DNA from: Rhodobiaceae bacterium
GTDB taxonomy: Bacteria > Pseudomonadota > Alphaproteobacteria > Rhizobiales > NORP267
Reading direction: 5' to 3'
DNA length: 64,000 nt
Assembly (NCBI GenBank): GCA_020441905.1
Contig: JAGRLG010000030.1
Location: 20,970 to 84,969 of the forward strand
The first letter of the stretch is position 1. Every line of letters starts with the position of its first letter. Of this stretch, positions 1 through 52,132 are shown piece after piece. Both the position numbers and the translations under genes were made by a program. A model generated the notes under the pieces. That model worked only from the letters and a program-made list of their open reading frames with translations. It had not been told where the DNA came from and did not search any database.

Positions 1-698
1 CCTTCGAGTGGCTGCGCAAGGCGCCCTGGGGCAATCCGGCCTTTGCCGGCATGTTCCTGTCGCTGGTGCTGTTCGGCTTCCTCGGCGGCATCACCGGCGT
101 CGTGCTGGGTACCGAGCAGATCAACCTGATCATGCACAACACCCTGTATGTGCCGGGGCATTTCCATGCCACGGTGGTGGCGGGCACCACGCTTGCCTTC
201 ATGGCGGTCACCTATCTCGTCGTACCGCTGATCTTCCGCCGTCAGATCATCCTGCCGGGCCTCGCCAAGTGGCAGCCCTATCTGTTCGGCATCGGCGTCG
301 CCGGCATCTCGCTGTTCATGATGGGTGCAGGCACGCTGGGCGTTCCGCGCCGGCACTGGGACATCACCTTTACCGATGCCGCCATTGCCGTCGATATGCC
401 CGGCACGGCGTTCCTGATGATGGGTCTGAACGGTCTGTTCGCGCTACTCGCGGCGACAGGCGGCCTACTCTATATCCTCATCGTCGTCGGTTCGGTGTTG
501 TTCGGCGAGAAGCGGACCGAGGCGGTCGCCAAGGCCAACCCGGTCATCTTCGATGCCAGCACCGTCAAGAGCTACGGCTCGGAGGAACATCCGAAGCTTT
601 CCGGGACTTACGTCCTGGTGGCCATCTTCTTCGTGGCTTTCGTTCTCTACTACTATGTGAACTGGAAGTTCCTGTCGGAAGTCTGGCCGCTTAGCTAA
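1..698 (+). CDS. Haem-copper oxidase superfamily subunit I, C-terminal part (5' end outside window), B-family-like
   Basis: Frame 3 is open from the window edge (FEWLRKAPWGNPAF...). The translation contains HNTLYVPGHFHATVV (helix-X His-x-His haem ligands, with the VPGHFH form I associate with ba3/B-type enzymes) and GVPRRHW. There are several TM helices, including an extra C-terminal one. Stop at 696-698. Confidence 0.85.
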   Translation, partial: FEWLRKAPWGNPAFAGMFLSLVLFGFLGGITGVVLGTEQINLIMHNTLYVPGHFHATVVAGTTLAFMAVTYLVVPLIFRRQIILPGLAKWQPYLFGIGVAGISLFMMGAGTLGVPRRHWDITFTDAAIAVDMPGTAFLMMGLNGLFALLAATGGLLYILIVVGSVLFGEKRTEAVAKANPVIFDASTVKSYGSEEHPKLSGTYVLVAIFFVAFVLYYYVNWKFLSEVWPLS

Positions 699-710
699 GC
701 GAATGAAGGC

Positions 711-742
711 GGGCCCGCGGCGCAAATCGCGGGCCCGTTTTT
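711..742 (+). terminator. Rho-independent terminator after oxidase subunit I
   Basis: GGGCCCGCG (711-719), 8-nt loop, CGCGGGCCC (728-736), then G+TTTTT (737-742). It lies 13 nt after the stop codon. Confidence 0.8.
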
Positions 743-772
743 CTCTCAACCCGGTGTAACTGGAGTCCGGCC

Positions 773-1642
773 TTGGCCAACCCGATCGCCCTTGTGGCCA
801 ACGTGTTCAAGTTGCGCATCGGTGTGGCGATTACGCTTTGTGCCCTTGCCGGCCTTGCCGTCACACCCGGCCCCGACCTGCCGGTCTGGAAGATCGCTGT
901 CTTGGGCCTGAGCGTTCTTTTTTCGTCCGCCGCCGCGGGTGCCTTCAATCAGTATGTCGAGCGCGATCTCGACGCGCATATGACACGGACCCGCAACCGG
1001 CCCTTCGTCACCGGTGCCCTCGCGCCCGGATGGCCCTGGCCGGCCGTCATTTCCGGCATCCTTGTCGCTTCCGTTGCCGCCGCGGCGCTGGTTCTGAACC
1101 TGGCCGCCGCCGCCTATGTTTTTCTCGGCGCCTTCTTTTACGGCATCGTCTACACCGTATGGCTGAAACGCCGCAGCGCCTGGAACATCGTCATCGGCGG
1201 GCTAGCCGGCAGTTTCGCCGTTCTCGCCGGCGCCGCCGCCATCGATCCGGCGCTAGCGCCCGAGCCTGTCATCCTGGCCGTCGTGCTGTTCCTGTGGACG
1301 CCGCCCCATTTCTGGAGCCTGGCCGCCGCGCTGCGCGACGATTATGCCGCTGCCGGAGTTCCCATGCTCCCGGTCGTCGTCGGTACGCCGCGCGCCTCGC
1401 AGGCTACTCTGGTGCATACGCTCGTCCTCGTGGCGTTGTCGCTGGTGCCGGCGCTGGCCTATGGCCTCGGGCCGATCTATCTTGCGGGTGCCGCCGCCGG
1501 TGGCGCCCTTTTTGTCTGGCGCAGCATTCAGTTTGCCCTGGCGCCGGGACGCATTACCGCAATGTCCAATTTTCACGCGTCGCTGGTTCAGCTAACCCTG
1601 CTCCTGGTCGGCGCCATGCTGGATCGTTGGCTCCTCGCCTGA
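773..1642 (+). CDS. ctaB: Protohaem IX farnesyltransferase (haem O synthase), UbiA family
   Basis: TTG start with GGAG at 762-765. Translation has FNQYVERDLDAHMTRTRNRPFVTG and a multi-TM UbiA-type layout with WTPPHFWSLA. Confidence 0.85.
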   Translation: MANPIALVANVFKLRIGVAITLCALAGLAVTPGPDLPVWKIAVLGLSVLFSSAAAGAFNQYVERDLDAHMTRTRNRPFVTGALAPGWPWPAVISGILVASVAAAALVLNLAAAAYVFLGAFFYGIVYTVWLKRRSAWNIVIGGLAGSFAVLAGAAAIDPALAPEPVILAVVLFLWTPPHFWSLAAALRDDYAAAGVPMLPVVVGTPRASQATLVHTLVLVALSLVPALAYGLGPIYLAGAAAGGALFVWRSIQFALAPGRITAMSNFHASLVQLTLLLVGAMLDRWLLA

Positions 1643-1657
1643 AAGAGGCCGAAAGAC

Positions 1658-2578
1658 ATGCAATTCAGGGCGATTGCCCGCACCGTCTGCTTGGTTGGCC
1701 TGGCACTGGCTCCGCTGGTCGCCGCGGCGGGCGCGTGGGCGGAATCGCCGGCGCTTTCGGGCGGCCATGGCGGCAAGCTGCGGGCCGTGCCAGCGGCTGG
1801 GGCGAAGCCGGTCGACCGGTCTAGCCACCCGGGCGCCGCCGAATTCGATGAAAAGCAGGCTCTGGCAATCAGCCAGGGGGCGATCGGCAACCGGCTTTCC
1901 AATCTGTCCTTCACCGATTCAAATGGGCAGAAGGTCGAGTTGTCCGAATTTCTCGGCAAGCCGCTGATTGTCAGCATGGTCTATACCAGTTGCTACCACA
2001 CTTGCCCGCTGATTACGGAAACCGTCGAACACGCGGTTTCGAATGCCAACGGCACGATCGGCGCCGACAAGCTCAACGTCATTTCCGTCGGGTTCGATAC
2101 CCGCTACGACACGCCGGAGCGCATGCGCTCATTTGCCCGCAATCATGGCGTCAAGGAATCCAATTGGCGGTTGCTGTCGGGTGACGAAGAGACAATAAAG
2201 CAGCTGTCGAGAGAACTCGGCTTCATTTTCTTCCCGTCGTCCAAGGGGTTCGACCATCTGGCCCAGACGACGGTCATCAATAAGGACGGAATCGTCCACG
2301 GACAGGTTTACGGTGCCGATTTTCCGCTGCCGAGCCTGGTCGAACCGATAAAAGCCCTGGTTTTCGGGAGGGAGCGCGATTTTACCACGTTCGAGGGAAT
2401 CGCAAATCGCATACGGTTGTTCTGCACGCTCTACGATCCGCGGGACGACCGCTATTATTTTGACTATTCAGTGTTTATCGGCATCATCATCGGATTTCTG
2501 TGCCTCGGAGGGGTTGGCACGGTCCTGATACGCAACATCTGGCGGCTTTGGCGGAACAGCAAGGCGCACCAGGCGTAA
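1658..2578 (+). CDS. SCO1/SenC-family copper chaperone with signal peptide and extra C-terminal TM anchor
   Basis: AGAGG RBS. N-terminal signal-like segment ends ...AAAGAWA. Thioredoxin-fold CxxxC (YTSCYHTCP) and conserved His (FDHLAQT) are present. The C-terminal LFCTLYDPRDDRYYFDYS is followed by a hydrophobic helix (VFIGIIIGFLCLGGVGTVLI). Confidence 0.85.
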   Translation: MQFRAIARTVCLVGLALAPLVAAAGAWAESPALSGGHGGKLRAVPAAGAKPVDRSSHPGAAEFDEKQALAISQGAIGNRLSNLSFTDSNGQKVELSEFLGKPLIVSMVYTSCYHTCPLITETVEHAVSNANGTIGADKLNVISVGFDTRYDTPERMRSFARNHGVKESNWRLLSGDEETIKQLSRELGFIFFPSSKGFDHLAQTTVINKDGIVHGQVYGADFPLPSLVEPIKALVFGRERDFTTFEGIANRIRLFCTLYDPRDDRYYFDYSVFIGIIIGFLCLGGVGTVLIRNIWRLWRNSKAHQA

Positions 2579-2592
2579 CGGAGTGCAACAAC

Positions 2593-4179
2593 ATGACCTT
2601 CCTTCAGGCACCGATTCGTGCCTTTTTCGCCATTCTCGAGAGCGCTTTGGACCGGATCTTCGGTGCCAAGTTCAACCCGCTGTACCATTTGGGAGCGCTC
2701 GGCTTCTTCATGTACTGGGTGGTCGCGGTCACCGGTATCTACATCTACATTTTCTTCGATACCGGCATCACCGAAGCCTATGATTCGGTCGAATATATGA
2801 CCCATGACCAGTGGTATCTGGCCGGCGTCATGCGCTCATTCCACCGCTATGCCTCGGATGCCATGGTGCTGTTCATGGTGATCCATATCTTCCGCGAATT
2901 CGCCATGGATCGCTATCGCGGAGCGCGCTGGTTCACCTGGGTCACCGGAACCCCGGTCATGATCCTGATCTTTGCCTCGGGTATCACCGGCTACTGGCTG
3001 GTCTGGGACGAACTCGCCCAGTTCATCGCCGTGCGCTCGGCCGAATGGCTGGATTGGCTGCCAATTTTCGGCACCGCCATCGCCGCCAACTTCCTGACCC
3101 CCGATGCGCTGGACGACCGCTTCTTCACCCTGATGATCTTCATCCACATCGCGGCCCCCTTGATCCTGCTGTTCATCTTGTGGATTCACTTGCAGCGCGT
3201 CTCCAATGCGGTCACCAATCCGCCCCGCGCGCTGGCCGTCGGCATGATGGTTGCAATGCTGGTGCTGTCGCTGGTCAAGCCCGCGGTCAGCCATGGCCCC
3301 GCCGATCTTGGCACCGTGGTGTCGGTGCTCGACCTCGACTGGTTCTATCTCGGCATGTATCCGCTGCTCGACTACTGGTCTTCGGGCACGGTATGGGCAA
3401 CGCTCGGCGTGCTTTTGCTGATCCTGCTCCTGCTGCCCTGGCTGCCGCCGATGCGCCGCGCCGCCCCGGCCCTGGTCACCCTGGACCAGTGCAATGGCTG
3501 CACACGCTGCCAGGCGGACTGTCCCTATGCCGCCATCACCATGGTGCCGCGCACGGATGGACTCAAATTCGACCTCCAGGCCGAAGTCAATCCCGACAAA
3601 TGCGTCAGTTGCGGCATTTGCGCCGGGGCCTGTCCGACCGCGACGCCGTTCCGGCGCCGCGCCGATCTGGTTGCCGGCATCGATCTGCCGGATTCCTCGA
3701 TCGCCGACCTTCGCGACCGCATCCATGCCGCCGCTGACCTGCTTGGCGGCAAGACCCGCATTCTGGTCATGTCGTGCCAGCATGCGGCCCGCACCGACGA
3801 TCTGGTCGGGCCGGAAGCGACCGCGGTCAAGGTGCCCTGCATCGGCGCCATTCCGCCGTCCTTTATCGATTACATGCTGAGCGAGGGGCTTGCCGACGGC
3901 GTCATGCTGTCGGGCTGTTCGGAAGGCGAATGCTACAATCGATTTGGCGGCCATTGGACCAAGGCGCGGCTGGAAGGCACCCGCGACCCCAACCTGCGCA
4001 AGCGCGTTCCGCGCGAACGCATAGGCACCTTCTGGGGCAACAAGATGCAAGGCGGCGGGTTGCGCCGTGAAATCGAGCGGTTTGCCGGCTCCCTTGCCGA
4101 TCTTCCCAAACCGCCGCTGCCGGATCGATCCGGTCCCCCTCCCGCTCCCAGCCGGTCGAAGGAGGCGAGCGATGCTTAG
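2593..4179 (+). CDS. Fusion protein: dihaem cytochrome b (bc1/b6 N-terminal type) + 2x[4Fe-4S] ferredoxin + MvhD/FlpD-like hydrogenase Fe-S domain
   Basis: ATG at 2593 with GGAG at 2580-2583. N-terminal part has RSFHRYASDAMVLFMVIHIFREF and FIHIAAPLILLFILWIHL (four His on helices B/D). Then CNGCTRCQADCP and CVSCGICAGACP. Then VMSCQH...VPCIGAIPPSFIDYML..GADGVMLSGCSEGECYNRFGGHW (MvhD/FlpD pattern). Confidence 0.8.
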   Translation: MTFLQAPIRAFFAILESALDRIFGAKFNPLYHLGALGFFMYWVVAVTGIYIYIFFDTGITEAYDSVEYMTHDQWYLAGVMRSFHRYASDAMVLFMVIHIFREFAMDRYRGARWFTWVTGTPVMILIFASGITGYWLVWDELAQFIAVRSAEWLDWLPIFGTAIAANFLTPDALDDRFFTLMIFIHIAAPLILLFILWIHLQRVSNAVTNPPRALAVGMMVAMLVLSLVKPAVSHGPADLGTVVSVLDLDWFYLGMYPLLDYWSSGTVWATLGVLLLILLLLPWLPPMRRAAPALVTLDQCNGCTRCQADCPYAAITMVPRTDGLKFDLQAEVNPDKCVSCGICAGACPTATPFRRRADLVAGIDLPDSSIADLRDRIHAAADLLGGKTRILVMSCQHAARTDDLVGPEATAVKVPCIGAIPPSFIDYMLSEGLADGVMLSGCSEGECYNRFGGHWTKARLEGTRDPNLRKRVPRERIGTFWGNKMQGGGLRREIERFAGSLADLPKPPLPDRSGPPPAPSRSKEASDA

Positions 4180-4678
4180 TATCGTCAAATATATCGGTCA
4201 GGCGCTCGTTTATGCCGCCATCATGGCCAGCCTGGGTTTCCTGGCGACCTCTCCCGCTTATCAGCATTTCCCGCCCGATCACGCGATGATCAAGCTGACC
4301 TTCGCCCATGGCGGCAAGCATATCACCGACTGTGTGAGGACCTCGCGCGAGGACCTGAAGGACCTGGCGCCCAATATGCGCAAGCAGGTCCGCTGCTCGC
4401 GGGACCGTGTCGCCATTACCGTGCAGCTGGAGATCGACGGCAAGGCGGTCTACGACCACACCTTGCAGCCGGCGGGCCTGCGCAATGACGGGCCTTCGCA
4501 GGTCTATGAGGGCTTCCCGGTTACGGCCGGAAAGCATGTGCTCAGCATGCGTCTGCGCGACACCAAGCGTACCGACGGCGGCTTCGACTACGAAACCACA
4601 GCCGAGGTTGAGCTTTCGCCGAAGCAGCTGTTTGTTATACAATTTCGACCTGAATTCGGCGGATTCTATTTTAACTAG
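4172..4678 (+). CDS. Hypothetical membrane-anchored protein (single N-terminal TM + ~130 aa soluble, beta-rich-looking domain)
   Basis: ATG at 4172 overlaps the upstream stop by 8 nt, with GGAGG at 4161-4165. N-terminal helix is YIGQALVYAAIMASLGFLA. I recognise no family. The AT-richer 3' end is still in frame. Confidence 0.6.
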   Translation: MLSIVKYIGQALVYAAIMASLGFLATSPAYQHFPPDHAMIKLTFAHGGKHITDCVRTSREDLKDLAPNMRKQVRCSRDRVAITVQLEIDGKAVYDHTLQPAGLRNDGPSQVYEGFPVTAGKHVLSMRLRDTKRTDGGFDYETTAEVELSPKQLFVIQFRPEFGGFYFN

Positions 4679-4702
4679 ATCAGCCGGGAAGTGGAGAATC
4701 GC

Positions 4703-5113
4703 ATGGCCTTGGTTGGATGGAAAAAGGAATACGAAACGGGCATTGAGTCCGTCGACGAGGAGCACAAGGAACTGCTTGCGCTGATCAACGAAACCACGGC
4801 AAAGCTGCGCGCCGATTTGCATACGGTGGAGAACATCGAGTCCTATCTTGGTGAGATCCATGCCAAGATTTCGGCCCACTTCGCGCTTGAAGAGCGCTTC
4901 ATGCGTGACGCCAGCTACAGCCATTTGAAGCCGCACAAGGACGATCACGAACGGCTTCTCGATGACCTGCGCCGGATCATGGTGAACTACCGCTCGGGCT
5001 CCTATCTTCAGTTCGAGCAATCCTTGATCCAGCACCTCAACGACTGGTTCATGATCCACTTCACCACGCATGATTCGCTTTTGCACGGTGAACTGGGCGA
5101 TCACCCGCATTGA
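4703..5113 (+). CDS. Bacteriohemerythrin-like di-iron protein
   Basis: ATG at 4703 preceded by GGAG (4693-4696); an alternative GTG lies at 4691. Full ligand pattern is present: VDEEHKELL, HAKISAHFALEE, HKDDHERLL, WFMIHFTTHD. Confidence 0.85.
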   Translation: MALVGWKKEYETGIESVDEEHKELLALINETTAKLRADLHTVENIESYLGEIHAKISAHFALEERFMRDASYSHLKPHKDDHERLLDDLRRIMVNYRSGSYLQFEQSLIQHLNDWFMIHFTTHDSLLHGELGDHPH

Positions 5114-5300
5114 TCGTCGCGGTGGCGGCGGCTGACCGGCCGCCGCCGCCGGGGCGCCATCTAGTTCCGGTTTCCAGCGGGGGCGGCACCGATAGCGGGT
5201 CCGCCCCCGTTGCCTTTGGTGCCCGGCAAATTTCCAGGCCGGCTGGACGCGATGAGGCGTATCGGGTCTACTGAAGGGGAAGAACAGTCGGGGGCGTTGA

Positions 5301-5936
5301 ATGACCGGCAGTGGAAACACGCCCGATGTCATCATCTGGGACATGGGCGGCATCCTCTATCGTTTTTTCACCGAAGTGGTGGTCGAGCGCGCCCGGCACG
5401 AAAACTGGCCGCTTGAACGCCTCGCCCTGGGGCCGACGGGGCTGGCGCCTGATCCCGACTATGCTGCCCTGGATCGCGGCGATATCAGCGAACCGGAATA
5501 TGTCAGGCGCCTGGTGGCGGGCCTTGCCCGCCACGGCATCGAATATGAGCCTTATGCCGATGTCGGCCTGGGCGGCAGGGAGCGGGCGGAAACCTGGCCA
5601 CTCGTGGTCAGCCTCGGGCGGATGGGCCGGCGCCAGGTGCTGCTAACCAACGATGCCACGGCCTGGCTGGGCGAGGCATGGTGGGAGGGGTGGAAATACC
5701 GCGACCATTTCGAGGCCATTGTCGACGTCAAGACGATCGGCATCCGTAAGCCGGCGCCCGAGCCTTATCTGGCTTGCACCCGCGCCCTTGGCGTGACGCC
5801 GGACCAATGCATCTTCATAGACGATATGCATGTCAATTGCCTGGGCGCCGAGGCGGTCGGCATGGAAAGCTACTGGTTCGACGTTGCCGATCTGCCAGCC
5901 GCTGTGGCGGGCCTGAACCAGCGGCTGGGCCTCTAG
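5301..5936 (+). CDS. HAD-superfamily hydrolase
   Basis: VIIWDMGGIL N-terminal motif, LLTNDA, and CIFIDD near the C-terminus. Subfamily not assignable. Confidence 0.7.
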   Translation: MTGSGNTPDVIIWDMGGILYRFFTEVVVERARHENWPLERLALGPTGLAPDPDYAALDRGDISEPEYVRRLVAGLARHGIEYEPYADVGLGGRERAETWPLVVSLGRMGRRQVLLTNDATAWLGEAWWEGWKYRDHFEAIVDVKTIGIRKPAPEPYLACTRALGVTPDQCIFIDDMHVNCLGAEAVGMESYWFDVADLPAAVAGLNQRLGL

Positions 5937-6096
5937 CGGACGCGGCCCGGACCAGGCGTTCCGGCGGGCGGACTCGCGCCTGCCAGCCGCGATCCGACAG
6001 GCCCGCCTTGCCGCGGCCAGGCGCCGCCGCCGCCCGCGCCAGCCTGGCGAAAACAGCCATTGATTTGCCACAATGATCGTGCGAAATCTCCTCAAC

Positions 6097-6120
6097 GGCG
6101 GCCCGGTTAGGCCGCCTTTC
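6097..6120 (+). terminator. Orphan terminator-like hairpin in a 278-bp gap
   Basis: GGCGGCC (6097-6103), loop CGGTTA, GGCCGCC (6110-6116), then TTTC. It lies about 160 nt downstream of the HAD stop, with no CDS immediately upstream. Confidence 0.4.
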
Positions 6121-6214
6121 CTATGGCGAATATCCGGAGCGCGTGAGGGCAAGTTGGTCTTGCGCAGCGCCACCGCCCGCCAGCAGTGTGGCTTTCGGAA
6201 CGCAGGGTTCATAA

Positions 6215-6634
6215 ATGGAAAAAATGCTTAGGGTAATCGCTACCGGCCGGGTGGCGTTGGTCGCCGCCTTGGTGATTGTGGTTCTGTCTCTGATTCCGGC
6301 GGGCAATTGGTATCACGGGCTGGGTATCGAGGGTCTGGATCACTATATCGCCTATTTTGCCCTGTCCTTCCTGCTGCTTTACGGCTGCCAGGACCGCTTG
6401 GGCTGGGCCGCGCGCATGGCTGGCGCGATGACCCTCGGTCTTTTCATCGAACTGGTGCAGCCCTATTTCCATCGCGGCATGGAACTGCCCGATGTCTACG
6501 CCAATGCCGCCGGCATTGCGTCGGGCGCGCTGCTTGTCCTGTTGGTTCGCGCCGCCGTTTCCTTCCTGCATCGCCATATGCTGGATTTCGGCTTGGCCAA
6601 GGCCGGCGCCGCCGCCGACAATGTGGCGCCATAG
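6215..6634 (+). CDS. VanZ-like family membrane protein
   Basis: Four hydrophobic helices with HYIAYFALSFLL and ELVQPYFHRGMELPDVYANAAG, typical of VanZ-like proteins. Start could be 6215 or 6224. Confidence 0.65.
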   Translation: MEKMLRVIATGRVALVAALVIVVLSLIPAGNWYHGLGIEGLDHYIAYFALSFLLLYGCQDRLGWAARMAGAMTLGLFIELVQPYFHRGMELPDVYANAAGIASGALLVLLVRAAVSFLHRHMLDFGLAKAGAAADNVAP

Positions 6635-6721
6635 CCGCCAAGCGCCAGTCCGCACTGCCCGTAAATGGCGCGAAACCCCGGCGCTATTTCCGGCATAAAT
6701 CTAATAATTTCAGGAATTTAA

Positions 6722-6797
6722 TGGTGGGCGGTACTGGACTCGAACCAGTGACCCCTGCGATGTGAACACAGTGCTCTACCAACTGAGCTAACCGCCC
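6722..6797 (-). tRNA. tRNA-Val (anticodon CAC), CCA encoded
   Basis: Reverse complement is GGGCGGTTAGCTCAGTTGGTAGAGCACTGTGTTCACATCGCAGGGGTCACTGGTTCGAGTCCAGTACCGCCCACCA. All four stems pair (acceptor 7 bp, D 4 bp, anticodon 5 bp, T 5 bp). Anticodon loop is TTCACAT and T-loop is TTCGAGT. Confidence 0.95.
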
Positions 6798-6914
6798 CCG
6801 CCGCGCGCCCGGCGCCACGGCAGGCCGATATAAGGTTCAAGCTTTGGCCAAGTCAAGCGCGGCGCGGACGCTTTCCCGCTTGCCGGCAAAAATCAGCTCG
6901 GGCATATAGGCACC

Positions 6915-8111
6915 ATGGCCAAAACCACATCCTGGTGGCATGTCCTCATCCTGCTGATCGCCGGTGTGGCAATATCCCTCCAGATCGGAAAAGTGCCCGG
7001 CGCGGTGCCGGTGCTCAAGGAAGAGCTGTCGATCAGCCTGTTCGCTGCCGGCTGGGTCATATCAATTTTCAATCTGATCGCGGCGACAAGCGGAATCGCC
7101 CTTGGCGGCATAGCCGACAAGTTCGGCCAGCACCGCACCGTCGTCTTTGGCCTCGTGCTTACGGCTCTGGCGGCCATCCTCGGCGCCTTCGCCACCGGAC
7201 CGGCAAGCCTCCTCGTCACCCGCGCCCTGGAAGGCTTCGGCTTCGTCGTCGCCACGGTATCGATTCCAATGCTGATGACCGCAGTGGCGGCGTCGCGCGA
7301 TCGCGACCTGGTCCTTGGCCTGTGGAGCGTCTACATGCCCATGGGCACCGGCATGATGATGCTCATCGGTGCGCCGCTGCTCGATATTACCGGCTGGCGC
7401 GGCTTGTGGTGGCTGACGGCCATCATCATCCTCGGCGTCTGCGTCGCGGTCTATCGCGTCGCCGGCCGCGCCGTCACCAGCCTGCCGCCCCACACGCGCC
7501 CGCGCATGCGCGACATCACTCAGGTGGCTACCCGGCGCGGCCCCCTCATGCTGGCGCTGCTGTTCTGCTGCTATGCCGGCATGTTCATGGCCGTGCTCGG
7601 TTTCCTGCCCTATATCCTGGTCGAGGTCGATGGGCTTTCCAAGCCGCTGGCGGCTACCTTTGGCGCGGTGGCGGTGCTGGCCAATGTCGTCGGCAATCTG
7701 CTCGGCGCCTTCGCCCTTCACCACAATGCCGACCGCCGCGTCATGATGTTGATCGGCAACCTGTCGATGGCCGTCGGGGCCACCCTGGCGATGATGGATT
7801 TCCACCCCTATATCCGCGTCTATGGCGGTGCGCTGCTGGCGCTTGGCGGCGGCTGGATTCCGAGCACCCTGTTCACGCTGGCGCCGGTGCATGCGCCGCG
7901 CATCCAGCAACTGTCGAGCGTCACCGGACTGATGCAGCAGGGCGCCGCCATCGGCATGCTGCTGATGCCGCCGGCCGTTGCCGCCATCGTCGGCTGGTTC
8001 GGTACCTGGAGTGCCGCCGTACCCTTCGCATGGGCGGTGGCCCTGGTCGGCGTCTACGCCACCATCCAGCTCACGCGCTCGGACAGTCTCGGTTCGCAGG
8101 TGCCGGCCTGA
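6915..8111 (+). CDS. MFS transporter
   Basis: About 12 hydrophobic helices in a 398-aa ORF, with a typical MFS loop (GGIADKFGQHRT). Substrate unknown. Confidence 0.8.
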   Translation: MAKTTSWWHVLILLIAGVAISLQIGKVPGAVPVLKEELSISLFAAGWVISIFNLIAATSGIALGGIADKFGQHRTVVFGLVLTALAAILGAFATGPASLLVTRALEGFGFVVATVSIPMLMTAVAASRDRDLVLGLWSVYMPMGTGMMMLIGAPLLDITGWRGLWWLTAIIILGVCVAVYRVAGRAVTSLPPHTRPRMRDITQVATRRGPLMLALLFCCYAGMFMAVLGFLPYILVEVDGLSKPLAATFGAVAVLANVVGNLLGAFALHHNADRRVMMLIGNLSMAVGATLAMMDFHPYIRVYGGALLALGGGWIPSTLFTLAPVHAPRIQQLSSVTGLMQQGAAIGMLLMPPAVAAIVGWFGTWSAAVPFAWAVALVGVYATIQLTRSDSLGSQVPA

Positions 8112-8117
8112 ATCGGC

Positions 8118-8804
8118 TCAGCGCGCCAGCGGCCCCAGCAGGCGTTCCAGTTCGGGCATCAGGGCGTCGAAATGCGAAATCACCGCATCCGGCGCGAATG
8201 TCGAGATATGGCGGTCGGTATAGCCGAAGGTGACCCCGATCACCGGCAGGCCGGCCGAGCGCGCGGCGCGCACGTCGGTCTCGCTGTCGCCCACCATGAC
8301 CGCCTGGCCCGCTTGCGCGCCAATCCGCTCCAGAGTTTGCAGCAGGTGTCGGCCATCGGGTTTGTGCACGGCGAATGTGTCGCCTCCGGCGACTGCGTCG
8401 AAATAGTCCAAGAGGTCGAGTGCGCGCAGCAAGTGCAGGGAGCTGTGCTCGCGTTTGTTGGTGCAGACCGCCAGTTTCGCCCCCGACGTCTTGAGGGCGC
8501 GCAGCATTTCGGTGACACCGGGAAAGACGCGGCTTTCGCGGGCAATATTGTCGGCGTAATAGCGCAGGAAACGGTCGAGCAACTGATCGAGAAGCGCGTC
8601 GTCGTAAATTTGCCCGGAAGCCTCCATGCCGCGCTCGATCAGCGCCCGCGCGCCCATGCCGATGAGATGGCGCACCTTATCCGGCGCGATCGTCGGCGCG
8701 CCGATGCCCTCCAGCACGAAATTGAGCGCCAGAGTCAGGTCGGGCGCGGTGTCGGCCAGCGTGCCGTCGAGGTCGAACAGGATGGCGGGCGCGGTGTTGG
8801 TCAT
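8118..8804 (-). CDS. gph: Phosphoglycolate phosphatase-like HAD hydrolase
   Basis: Start taken at MTNTAPAILFDLDGTLADTAPDL (DxDGT motif I). CTNK and VMVGDSETDV motifs are present. The longer ORF start at 8840 is possible. Confidence 0.75.
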   Translation of the reverse strand: MTNTAPAILFDLDGTLADTAPDLTLALNFVLEGIGAPTIAPDKVRHLIGMGARALIERGMEASGQIYDDALLDQLLDRFLRYYADNIARESRVFPGVTEMLRALKTSGAKLAVCTNKREHSSLHLLRALDLLDYFDAVAGGDTFAVHKPDGRHLLQTLERIGAQAGQAVMVGDSETDVRAARSAGLPVIGVTFGYTDRHISTFAPDAVISHFDALMPELERLLGPLAR

Positions 8805-8910
8805 GTGCGGCAGGGGACCCGGCAGTGATGCCCGCTTCAAGCGGCTGGAGCGGTGTCGTAGCCTTGGCGGAGCGCCAAATCAACTGCCATCCGCGCCTGG
8901 CGCGGCGGCA

Positions 8911-10659
8911 TCAACTGGCATAGGCGGTCCGCAGGCCGCCCCAATGGCGGCCATGAACATGGATCGGAACGTCGATTTCCTTGATCATGTCCTTTTTGCC
9001 CGCTCCCATGTTGCGGGCATAGTTCTGGATCACATAAGGCCGCGTGTTTCGCGCCGCCGAAAGCCCGGCGCGGTCATCGAAAATCAGGCGATTGCGGCAA
9101 TGGGCCATGTTCCAATCCGGGTCGTCCGGGCGTTGCGGATGGGAATAGGCCGGATTGTGTACCGGAAGATAGCCGTTGAGGTCGACCGCGCAGCAAAGTT
9201 TCACGCCGGGGACCACATCGAAAACCTTGTCCTGAATTCGCGGCAGTATCGTCTCCAGATATGCGAGGGCGCGGGTGCGGTATTGCTGCGGATTGGTGCC
9301 GGCAATGGGCTGGTAGTCCATGTCGAACAGGTCGGCCTTTGATATGCGCCCGCTGTCTATTCCCTCCTCCATCGCCTTGGCGACCTCGCGCGCCGTCTCC
9401 TGCGCCCGTTCGATCAGCCGGCTGTTCTCCTGCTGGAGCTTGTCGGTCATCGCCTGCAGTCGCCCGGCGACCTCCTCGTCCATCTTGGAAAAGGCCACGT
9501 GTTTTCCAAGTTCGCTCGAACTGACCAGCCTGGCCGGCAGATCGCCGATACCCTCGAGCGAAACCGTGACTTCGCTGCCGGTCGTTATGTCCTTGGCGCC
9601 TTCCGCCTGAAGCAGGGCGCCGCCGTCGGACAGGTCGATGGTGACGATCGGCACCGAGCCGCCGCGATGTTCAAGGCGGCCGTCTATGGCGACGGGAAAG
9701 CGGTCATGGCGCCTGCGGTCGGCAACCTTGGTTTGCCGGATCAGCATGGTGAAACGGTTGCGCAGGCTCTCCAATTCGGCGTTCATGTCCTTTGCCGCCG
9801 CGCAGACTTCGTCGCCGACATCGACATATTGATCGGCGCATTTTCCGATATTGGCGATGCGCTCGGCCATGTCGGCGGCGAAGCGTTCCGTCTCGCCGGC
9901 GTTCTGGTTGATGGTCGCGATCGAGCGCGACTGTTCCTCGACCGAATGGGCGGCGCTGCCGAAAATCGGCTCCAGCTGGCCGATGGTTTCCGAAATATCG
10001 GTCACCGTGCCAATGCCGGCATGGGCCGATTTCTGCAATTGTTCGATCTTGGCCGCGATCTCCTCGGTGGCCCGCTGGGTCTGCACCGAAAGGGCCTTGA
10101 CCTCGTTGGCAACCACGACGAACCCGCGCCCGGCGGCACCGGCACGGGCGGCTTCGATGGTGGCGTTGAGGGCGAGCAGATTGGTCTGGCGCGCTACCGA
10201 GGCGATGAGCTGAACGACATTGCCGATTTCATCGGCCGCCTTGCGCAGATCCTCCATTCCCGTCGCCGCATTGCCGGCCAGGCTGCTCGCGCGCTTTGTC
10301 AGTGTTTCGGTTTCCGCCACCTGCCGCCCGACATTGGCGCTGGCGGCCTCCAGTTCTTCGGCAATAGCGACCAGCATGGCGGAATTCTGCGCTGCCTGGT
10401 CGCTCATCTGCGCCAGGCTATGGCTGTCTTTCTTGATCCCGGCGACGAGCTGGCGCTGGGCGTCCGTCCGCTCCCAGACCGAAGCGGAAGTTTGCAGGGC
10501 GCCTGACAATGCGCGGTTGATGTCCGTCTCGATGAGATTGAACGCGTCGTTGAGCTGGCTCACCTGGCCCGCTCCCGCTCCGCTTTCGCTCTCAAAGCCG
10601 GTTTTTTGTTCAGGTTGTATTTCAGCCATTGAAAGCCCGGTTCCCCCCAGGGTTTTCAT
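8911..10659 (-). CDS. Soluble methyl-accepting chemotaxis protein: MCP signalling domain, then PilZ, then C-terminal His/Cys-rich PAS/Cache-like domain
   Basis: No TM segment. Signalling tip is [35 protein letters not shown]. PilZ motifs are RRHDR (RxxxR) and DLSDGG (DxSxxG), at about nt 9475-9723. The C-terminal ~140 aa read AVDLNGYLPVHNPAYSHP...HCRNRLIFDDRAG...HVHGRHWGGLRTAY. Start could be 10659 or 10629. Confidence 0.85.
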   Translation of the reverse strand: MKTLGGTGLSMAEIQPEQKTGFESESGAGAGQVSQLNDAFNLIETDINRALSGALQTSASVWERTDAQRQLVAGIKKDSHSLAQMSDQAAQNSAMLVAIAEELEAASANVGRQVAETETLTKRASSLAGNAATGMEDLRKAADEIGNVVQLIASVARQTNLLALNATIEAARAGAAGRGFVVVANEVKALSVQTQRATEEIAAKIEQLQKSAHAGIGTVTDISETIGQLEPIFGSAAHSVEEQSRSIATINQNAGETERFAADMAERIANIGKCADQYVDVGDEVCAAAKDMNAELESLRNRFTMLIRQTKVADRRRHDRFPVAIDGRLEHRGGSVPIVTIDLSDGGALLQAEGAKDITTGSEVTVSLEGIGDLPARLVSSSELGKHVAFSKMDEEVAGRLQAMTDKLQQENSRLIERAQETAREVAKAMEEGIDSGRISKADLFDMDYQPIAGTNPQQYRTRALAYLETILPRIQDKVFDVVPGVKLCCAVDLNGYLPVHNPAYSHPQRPDDPDWNMAHCRNRLIFDDRAGLSAARNTRPYVIQNYARNMGAGKKDMIKEIDVPIHVHGRHWGGLRTAYAS

Positions 10660-50782: not shown

Positions 50783-52132
50783 TCAGGCGCTGCGGATAGT
50801 GGAAAGAAATCCCGCCACTTCCCGGCGCAGGGAATTGGCCTGCTCGGCCATCGCGTCGGTGGAATCGCGCAGTTGCGCCGCGATCAGATCGGTGACCTCG
50901 GCGGTATCGGCAAAGTCTTTGACATTGGCCGTCACCTCATTTGCCCGATCCGAGGCGAGAACAATGTTTTGCGAAATTTCCTTGGTCGCGACATCCTGCT
51001 GACGGGCGGCGGCGGCGACCGCGGCGATGATGTCATTCATGTTGCGCACCGTGTCGCCGACACTGTGTATGACATCGGCCGTGTTTTTCGTATCGGCCCG
51101 CACCGCCGCGATCTGGGCGTCGATCTCGGCCGTCGCCCTCGCGGTCTGGCTTGCCAGTTCCTTGACCTCGGCGGCGACGACGGCAAAGCCTTTCCCGGAC
51201 TCGCCGGCACGGGCCGCCTCGATCGTGGCATTGAGGGCGAGCAGATTGGTCTGTTCGGCAATTTCGTTGATGAGTTTGACAATACTGCCGATTTCTTCCA
51301 CCGAACTGAACAGCAGTTGAACCTTGTGCTTGGACTCTTCGGCGCCTTCCAGCGCCTTGCGCGACGTCTGGCTCGAGTCCTCGACCTGCTGATGGATTTC
51401 CTCGATCGAAGCCGAAAGTTCCTCTACCGCGGAGGCGACCGCCTCGACGCGCTCTGCCGTTTGTTCGCAGAATGCGACGGTATCGCCCGCCTTGGTGCGC
51501 GATTGCTCCGAGGCGCCCGCCAGTTCGCGCGATGCCCCGGCCAGCCGCTCGGCGGCGCCCGCAACAACGGTTCCGATGCCGGCAATGGTTTCCTCGAACC
51601 GCCCGGCCAATTGGTCGCGGCTGACCTTCCGCTGCTGCCGGCCGGCCTCGCGATAGGCGGCAATGGCCACCTGGATATCCAGCGTGGCCGCCTTGACGAT
51701 GGCGACCTGGGTCGCCACCAGGTTCCGGCGCCTCCCGCCCTCGAACCAGCCGCGCGGCAAATGGCGGGCCGAGGCATCGAGCAGGCCGGAAACGACCAGA
51801 TTGCAGGCACCGATATACCAGCTGGGTTCGAACCCGAGCTTTTGGTGCGCTTCGCCGATCCGGGTTATGGAGTCCAGATATCTGGTGCCGAACTTGGCTT
51901 CGAGAACAATCTCCCAGTGCGCGATCATCGCCGAGATCTGGCGGTCTATCTTCTTCGGGTTGTGTATGGCCAGACCGCTTTGTGGAAAATGACCGATATG
52001 GGCATAGACCCTTCCCAGTATGGCCGGCAGCTCGGACAGGATCATCGCCCGCGCCGCGCGCAGAGCATTCCGGCAGTCATCGTCGATACGATTGAAGCGC
52101 AAAAGATCGCCGAGAACATCTTGTCCGGTCAA
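50783..52132 (-). CDS. Globin-coupled sensor methyl-accepting chemotaxis protein (HemAT-like)
   Basis: N-terminal sensor globin ([14 protein letters not shown]...[10 protein letters not shown]...[18 protein letters not shown], candidate proximal His in EAHQKLG). C-terminal MCP tip [35 protein letters not shown]. No TM. Confidence 0.85.

Follow-up and report, generated by a model that had tools for sequence, protein, structure and literature searches.

The first 5,113 positions of the window, that is, of the whole 64-kb stretch of contig JAGRLG010000030.1 (Rhodobiaceae bacterium) that was analysed, hold what may well be the distal part of an operon for a nitric oxide (NO) reductase of the eNOR family, followed by a set of accessory redox genes. 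All operon genes lie on the + strand. The window opens inside the gene for subunit I of the enzyme (563 aa in full), which is truncated by the 5' end; its C-terminal 231 codons occupy 1..698 (frame of nt 3; Pfam COX1, E=4e-24), and the C-terminal motif HNTLYVPGHFH aligned with HNTAWVPGHFH of the ba3 oxygen reductase. A GC-rich hairpin of ~11 pairs followed by TTTTTCTCTC, read directly from the sequence at ~706–747 (+ strand; fold of -34.4 kcal/mol, z=-1.8), separates subunit I from the next gene and looks like an intrinsic terminator or attenuator; it was absent from the list returned by a consensus terminator scan. Downstream of it lie ctaB/cyoE (773..1642; 289 aa, TTG start), encoding a heme O synthase (TIGR01473 at 253.3 bits against a cut-off of 210.3, and Pfam UbiA), and the gene for a copper chaperone of the Sco/SenC type (1658..2578; 306 aa, Pfam SCO1-SenC at 56 bits), with a CxxxC motif (CYHTC in the translation), a signal-like stretch at its N-terminus and a hydrophobic one at its C-terminus. 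By the established roles of these families, CtaB makes the haem O needed en route to the haem A-type cofactor of eNOR, and Sco loads CuA. At 306 aa this Sco is unusually long, with a C-terminal extension of ~95 residues that ends in the hydrophobic, transmembrane-like segment.

Three further genes complete the series, two of which received their names, cybFeS and orf168, in this analysis. The 528-aa product of cybFeS (2593..4179) is a fusion of cytochrome b, two [4Fe-4S] ferredoxin motifs and an MvhD/FlpD domain (Pfam Cytochrome_B, Fer4_7, and FlpD). It is followed by orf168 (4172..4678), a family-less open reading frame (ORF) of 168 aa that overlaps cybFeS by 8 nt, and by a bacteriohemerythrin gene (4691..5113; 140 aa from GTG, or 136 aa from ATG at 4703). 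The gaps from ctaB to hemerythrin were thus 15, 14, -8, and then 12 or 24 nt. A second GC-rich hairpin with a T-rich tail, read from the sequence 3' of hemerythrin (5179..5219, + strand), probably marks the operon end. The genes, domains, coordinates and spacings of the initial annotation were all confirmed by Pfam, NCBIfam and the translations, and its view of the locus as an operon holds, with five genes downstream of subunit I rather than the six it had counted.

The exact CtaB protein was found on 22 metagenome contigs, and one contig, L002, matched window positions 1–10120 at 99.94% identity (L002:3130 corresponding to window:1), on the strength of which it was accepted as a legitimate extension of the window. 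Its 5' part holds a 60-aa ORF (L002:1018-1200), a 54-aa ORF with a single transmembrane helix (L002:1410-1574) directly 5' of subunit II, a CuA-type subunit II of 178 aa (L002:1590-2126) that lies outside the window, and the full-length subunit I of 563 aa (L002:2136-3827), whose C-terminus was identical to the product of window 1–698. Aligned with the CuA domain of ba3, subunit II kept all copper ligands (H, CxxxC, H, M; H...CxxxCxxxHxxM), and Pfam COX2 remained below threshold on it. The 54-aa ORF was conserved in 78 of the 80 related loci described below and the 60-aa ORF in about half of them; neither matched Pfam or NCBIfam. We take the 54-aa protein to be a possible counterpart of subunit IIa of ba3. 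On a contig of the same population (L003:1-4401, 99.8% identity), subunit I is broken at window position 407 and joined to unrelated sequence, and a single indel splits cybFeS into ORFs of 278 and 256 aa, which means either that the operon has decayed in that strain or that the contig was misassembled.

Full-length subunit I, with the N-terminal ligands and the cross-link position read on L002 upstream of the window, was compared with Thermus thermophilus ba3 as reference. All His ligands were kept (H69, H231, H280, H281, H385, and H387, each invariant or aligned with ba3), the GH, HH and HFH motifs matching H233, H282/283 and H384/386 of ba3. The GHPIVY of ba3 aligned with GHSSQQ, so that the cross-link Tyr237 is replaced by Gln. 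Oxygen reductases have Y at this position, cNOR and qNOR have E, sNOR/CuANOR N, eNOR Q and gNOR D (Hemp and Gennis, summarised in PMC8756737), and Asn for sNOR/qCuANOR was also given by Heylen and Keltjens. Because Gln rather than Asn stands at the cross-link position, the residue points to eNOR and away from sNOR. The initial annotation had proposed an sNOR-type NO reductase or an atypical oxidase and had looked to the upstream sequence for the missing parts of the enzyme. The upstream contig supplied both the CuA subunit II and the full subunit I with its Gln; descent from the B family and the lack of the oxygen-reductase Tyr were borne out, the sNOR label has to give way to eNOR, and the atypical oxidase falls with the loss of the Tyr. 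Its statement that the enzyme class had not been characterised no longer holds, as the eNOR of Rhodothermus marinus has been purified, reduces NO and not O2, and carries a haem A-type cofactor in both sites (PMC11214002). Many eNOR operons carry ctaA, and His/Lys ligation of the low-spin haem was described for some eNORs by Murali et al. (PMC11214002). The only pointer to haem type within the present operon is the ctaB gene.

A protein search over 1.8 billion cluster representatives returned 210 proteins below 1e-30. Among the full-length matches, the motif GHxxQQ[IV]N was read in this protein and in two others, P0241 (57% identity) and the haloarchaeal P0251 of Natrarchaeobius (40%), while the next relatives, at 36–46% identity and from metagenome-assembled genomes of Hodarchaeales and Thermoproteota, kept the Tyr as GHxxQY[IV]N. 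A search of plasmid proteins added Gln-type enzymes from T. thermophilus megaplasmids (48%) and from Thermomicrobium roseum (46%), and GHxxQQ[IV]N was common to the Thermus, T. roseum, Natrarchaeobius, and P0241 proteins. In a neighbour-joining tree, all the Gln-type sequences sampled, those of Thermus, Thermomicrobium and the haloarchaeon among them, formed one clade (97% bootstrap). This clade had the Gln-Tyr archaeal group as its sister and lay far from the canonical B-family enzymes with GHPxVY, a topology in agreement with the published clustering of eNOR with the K family. Two other assignments were rejected: an sNOR/bNOR enzyme, by the Gln in place of Asn and the grouping with Gln-type enzymes, and a canonical ba3 or B-family oxygen reductase, by the missing cross-link Tyr and the separate clade formed by the nearest Tyr-containing relatives. 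Motif and tree together make the identification of subunit I as an NO-reductase-type haem-copper enzyme of the B-family-derived eNOR family well supported, though not closed.

The Gln-type gene of Thermus adjoins nirS, a copper-oxidase-like gene and an Rrf2 regulator. On plasmid 4 of T. thermophilus TTHNAR1 (L088:7983-11055), nirS and the copper-oxidase-like gene lie 5' of the enzyme, the Rrf2 regulator and an ScdA_N (DUF542) gene lie 3' of it, and HFK replaces HFH at the low-spin haem ligand; this Lys at the second His of HFH matches the His/Lys ligation of Murali et al. On the megaplasmid of T. roseum, a 600-aa CtaA-CtaB fusion (L089:9838-11640; COX15-CtaA plus UbiA), labelled just 'heme o synthase' in RefSeq, directly follows eNOR subunit I.

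With one genome per GTDB species scanned, at least 584 proved to encode a relative, and the best 80 loci were kept. These loci, at 69–81% identity, came from Alpha- and Gammaproteobacteria, including Bradyrhizobium, Xanthobacteraceae, Rhodospirillaceae, Woeseiaceae, and Steroidobacteraceae, with no Magnetospirillum or Rhodothermus loci among them. Synteny was scored by tblastn with the window proteins, and 60 of the loci extend at least 5.6 kb beyond subunit I. Every sufficiently long locus had the same order on one strand, namely the 54-aa ORF, subunit II, subunit I, (ctaB), sco, cybFeS, orf168, and hemerythrin. The last four genes were colinear in 57 of the 60 loci, the other three lacking hemerythrin alone; ctaB was found in 49 of the 60, and sco was syntenic in all loci reaching that far. 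At the cybFeS–orf168 junction the median was -8 nt across 65 loci, equal to the overlap in the window, and the orf168–hemerythrin gap had a median of -1 nt. An order and strand shared by 57 out of 60 independent species-level loci is far beyond chance. The initial annotation had treated the five downstream genes as one module with the enzyme, and this proved sound, the genes being syntenic with subunit I in related genomes. The roles it offered, electron supply for the cytochrome b/Fe-S protein and O2/NO binding for the hemerythrin, are plausible proposals. The genes past position 5113 encode an HAD hydrolase, a VanZ-like protein and a transporter of the MFS type (Pfam), all unrelated to the operon, and since they recur in none of the related loci the unit ends at hemerythrin. 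A Defluviimonas plasmid annotated in RefSeq holds the operon genes too, with subunit I given as 'cbb3-type cytochrome c oxidase' and both subunit II and orf168 as hypothetical.

Clustering of the ORFs flanking the 80 loci revealed recurrent neighbours, which were a CRP/FNR-type regulator (19 loci), the cytochrome cd1 nitrite reductase gene nirS (18), NnrS (16), a NosR-like protein (14) and a NirJ-like radical SAM protein (6). The presence of nirS, nnrS, nosR-like and FNR-type genes supports an NO-related role of the clade. In none of the loci did the operon contain a gene for a Rieske protein or a cytochrome c. The locus of P0241 (L090) has napA and nirS upstream, and its operon runs subunit II, subunit I, sco, a gene for a 715-aa protein, and ctaB, with no hemerythrin in it. 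Just 5' of subunit II in this locus, between nirS and the eNOR genes, lies a gene for a 497-aa protein with a weak COX1 match (L090:5844-7337). The module of cybFeS, orf168 and hemerythrin was not found in the Thermus, Thermomicrobium, haloarchaeal, or Hodarchaeales loci.

Homologues of cybFeS number about 6000, and among the 120 matches listed they measured 516–557 aa with identical architecture. In 36 aligned homologues, H85/H99 and H186/H200 were invariant, with the 14-residue spacing of bc-type cytochrome b, and so were the eight ferredoxin Cys and the four Cys of the MvhD-like domain (C396, C417, C443, and C448). From these invariant residues cybFeS would be expected to carry a pair of b haems and two [4Fe-4S] clusters. 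Its MvhD-like domain, on which the FlpD match scored 46 bits (cut-off 22), probably binds one [2Fe-2S] cluster. The AlphaFold2 model of cybFeS (predicted local distance difference test, pLDDT, 77) has six long membrane helices followed by soluble domains. With six helices and the cytoplasmic N-terminus of a cytochrome b, the iron-sulfur (Fe-S) domains are predicted to be cytoplasmic, a side also required by their biogenesis. Foldseek matched the model to MvhD (5odc_D, TM-score 0.69) and to cytochrome b6/b over up to ~300 columns, and the sequence itself matched cytochrome b6 at E=3e-24. The WD of the cd region was invariant. A profile of residues 165–300 gave weak matches to b6f subunit IV and Aquifex cytochrome b, with LDWFY placed on PEWY (E 0.03–0.05), and a search of the Protein Data Bank with residues 150–295 alone returned no match. 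It is suggestive, not proven, that cybFeS comprises helices A–F of a cytochrome b together with a Qo-like pocket.

No Pfam or NCBIfam match was obtained for orf168, and its relatives were all annotated as 'hypothetical'. Four residues, H46, C54, C75, and H122, were invariant among the homologues. The AlphaFold2 model (pLDDT 92.7) consists of an N-terminal transmembrane helix and a beta-sandwich, for which a Foldseek search against solved structures gave generic beta-sandwiches only and no significant match. Positive residues precede the helix, and the domain is predicted to face the periplasm. In the 715-aa protein of L090, a form of cybFeS (36% identity) continues into a C-terminal domain that resembles orf168 (E=4e-16); this fusion and the conserved 8-nt overlap indicate that cybFeS and orf168 work as one unit. 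The hemerythrin matched TIGR02481 at 85 bits and NF033749 at 84.6 bits (cut-off 84), and its translation kept all seven di-iron ligands (H25, H62xxxE66, H81xxxH85, and H123xxxxD128). No signal peptide was seen in the translation, and the protein is predicted to be cytoplasmic.

The best explanation, to which we give a probability of about 0.55, is that positions 1–5113 form the downstream end of a conserved operon encoding an NO reductase of the eNOR family with an accessory redox module. As to what the module does, the preferred reading, tentative and held at less than even odds, is that cybFeS, orf168 and hemerythrin form a dedicated quinol-oxidising electron module serving eNOR. In this scheme cybFeS and orf168 would make up one membrane complex, quinol would be oxidised at the periplasmic Qo-like pocket beside orf168, and eNOR would have this complex as its own electron-transfer partner. 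From the quinol pocket, a chain of two b haems and three Fe-S clusters in cybFeS would lead to the cytoplasm, where hemerythrin would be the sole operon-encoded partner. In favour of such a module are the invariant haem and cluster ligands, the cytoplasmic side predicted for the Fe-S domains, the placement of LDWFY on PEWY and the cybFeS–orf168 fusion. In Ferrigenium, cytochrome b/Fe-S proteins of an eNOR operon were detected in the proteome under denitrifying conditions (bioRxiv 10.64898/2026.01.22.701106).

Several observations weigh against this explanation. The case for eNOR membership is built from motif, tree and gene context, the sequences compared being those of relatives other than the R. 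marinus and M. magnetotacticum enzymes that were tested biochemically. Neither the 64-kb window nor the 9 kb upstream of it contained nir, nor or nos genes, and NO detoxification is therefore as plausible here as respiration. Purified R. marinus eNOR is active with artificial donors, and Thermus, Thermomicrobium, and haloarchaeal loci do without the module; since the enzyme works alone and module-less loci exist, the module is dispensable for catalysis. The PEWY alignment is marginal, its E-value of ~0.03 being level with that of a spurious rhodopsin match, and orf168 shows no recognisable redox cofactor motif and no Tat signal. Finally, the neighbours of the module are assembly genes: in this operon it comes after the terminator-like hairpin, and in L090 it is flanked by sco and ctaB, a placement that fits a role in maturation equally well.

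That placement leads to an explanation which is on the doubtful side yet nearly as likely as the electron module, namely that cybFeS, orf168 and hemerythrin are maturation factors, a transmembrane redox helper for the cofactors of eNOR. One candidate step would be the O2-dependent conversion of haem O to haem A, with hemerythrin scavenging or delivering O2 at low oxygen; another would be the reduction and insertion of the active-site metal or of the CuA copper, with orf168 as periplasmic chaperone, for which its invariant His and Cys would be suited. The grouping with ctaB and sco on the 3' side of the hairpin, and the fused cybFeS–orf168 gene between sco and ctaB in L090, are in line with such a role. 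So is the haem A-type cofactor of eNOR, given that ctaA is present in many eNOR operons (PMC11214002), that a search for CtaA homologues within 10 kb came up empty at each of the 80 proteobacterial loci, and that the CtaA-CtaB fusion of Thermomicrobium sits where Proteobacteria have ctaB...cybFeS. The Ferrigenium authors moreover raise the source of O2 for haem A as an unsolved matter (bioRxiv 10.64898/2026.01.22.701106). However, five redox centres and a conserved Qo-like pocket would be much machinery for an assembly factor, Alphaproteobacteria normally hold ctaA elsewhere for the aa3 oxidase, and the complementarity with ctaA rests on very few distant loci. Nor did Foldseek reveal any known haem A synthase or metallochaperone resembling cybFeS or orf168.

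It is unlikely that the module serves instead to protect or detoxify the cytoplasm, with quinol electrons passing through the b haems and Fe-S clusters to hemerythrin, which would bind and reduce O2 or NO, or be held in reduced form, and so protect the cell while eNOR is in use. The predicted cytoplasmic location shared by the Fe-S/MvhD domains and hemerythrin, the complete set of seven di-iron ligand residues and the median orf168–hemerythrin gap of -1 nt would all suit this function, and the lack of nir/nos genes nearby in this genome fits detoxification better than respiration. However, hemerythrin is absent from 3 of the 60 loci and from the L090-type operon, and because cybFeS and orf168 are still kept there it is not an obligatory acceptor; the periplasmic orf168 would also be left without a role.

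Slightly less probable than cytoplasmic protection is a further reading, in which cybFeS and orf168 act as a bc-type quinol oxidase without a Rieske protein and send the two electrons of each quinol separate ways. The first would leave at the periplasm, where orf168 would stand in for the Rieske protein, and reach the CuA of eNOR, drawn by the very high potential at which NO is reduced. The second would travel via both b haems and all three Fe-S clusters to an acceptor of low potential in the cytoplasm, for which hemerythrin, a ferredoxin or, in the Ferrigenium variant, NAD+ are candidates. This extends an idea raised for Ferrigenium, whose related protein has FAD and NADH domains, and if true it would be a new form of coupling by which denitrification drives the formation of reductant in the cytoplasm. 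That the enzyme is an NO reductase of the sNOR type known from ammonia oxidisers, or else an oxygen reductase of an atypical kind, is very improbable despite the B-family-like sequence, the CuA subunit and the neighbouring senC/sco gene as in sNOR clusters, in view of the Gln at the Tyr position instead of the Asn of sNOR and bNOR, the bootstrap support of 97% for the Gln-type grouping and, for the oxygen reductase, the lost cross-link Tyr with the closest Tyr-bearing relatives in a separate clade.

Two genes elsewhere in the window, both on the - strand, encode chemotaxis-type proteins. One is a globin-coupled chemotaxis transducer (50783-52132; protoglobin plus MCP signalling domain) that could be an aerotaxis receptor sensing O2/NO, and the other a 582-aa fusion of an MCP signalling domain with PilZ, which binds cyclic di-GMP, with no obvious membrane sensor part (8911-10659).

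The enzyme family is already known and characterised, and near-identical arrangements of this operon run into the hundreds. For the accessory trio there are no family names, and in the searchable literature it is mentioned only as the 'rather unusual' cytochrome b/Fe-S genes of one 2026 preprint (bioRxiv 10.64898/2026.01.22.701106); a literature search for eNOR together with hemerythrin found no paper. The near-universal conservation of the trio in proteobacterial eNOR operons, the cybFeS–orf168 fusion and the link to hemerythrin appear not to have been described before. The eNOR-type enzymes are thought to make a large share of environmental nitrous oxide. A three-gene redox module that almost always accompanies eNOR in Proteobacteria, with two of its parts fused in one lineage, offers concrete candidates for the electron donor of eNOR or for its assembly. 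Because annotation pipelines call subunit I 'cbb3-type' and leave subunit II and orf168 hypothetical, these NO reductases are missed in denitrification surveys, and the public annotation of these eNOR genes needs correction.

Compared with known systems, cybFeS resembles cytochrome b6 plus subunit IV of b6f and cytochrome b of bc1 in its two bis-His sites, their 14-residue spacing, the WD of the cd region and, by a marginal alignment, the PEWY-like LDWFY. It differs from them in having neither a Rieske protein nor a cytochrome c1 or f, and in stopping after helix F and continuing into cytoplasmic Fe-S domains. It is like MvhD of the Mvh-Hdr complex in its MvhD-type domain with a probable [2Fe-2S] cluster, the docking and electron-transfer end, with 5odc_D as the Foldseek match. 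In QmoC, HdrE/HdrC, DsrMK, and NarI/NarH, too, a membrane-bound dihaem cytochrome b connects to [4Fe-4S] clusters on the cytoplasmic side, although the cytochrome b used by these modules is of the NarI type and not the bc type. Unlike those systems and Mvh-Hdr, the present operon has no gene for an HdrA-like flavoprotein or for any other obvious catalytic partner.

Among NO reductases, sNOR (norSY-senC-orf1) and the bNOR/qCuANOR of Bacillus are similarly B-family-derived, with a CuA subunit, a senC/sco neighbour and no cross-link Tyr, but they have Asn at the Tyr position and a multi-transmembrane 'orf1/CbaD' protein, and lack a cytochrome b/Fe-S fusion. The eNOR family, which includes the R. 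marinus enzyme and the 'cytochrome a1-like' haemoprotein of Magnetospirillum (Hemp and Gennis, 2008; Murali et al., 2024, PMC11214002), shares with the present locus the B-family-derived subunit I, the Gln for the cross-link Tyr, the CuA subunit II, a K-channel-like Ser/Tyr, the haem O synthase gene in the operon and, in relatives, the denitrification context; this locus differs in having no denitrification genes nearby. Similar in layout is the eNOR operon of Ferrigenium straubiae, in which genes for cytochrome b and [Fe-S] proteins come after those for eNOR II, eNOR I, haem o synthase, and sco1, although one of the Ferrigenium proteins has extra FAD and NADH domains and the preprint mentions no hemerythrin. 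What its authors regarded as out of the ordinary is, in the proteobacterial loci examined here, the rule (57 out of 60).

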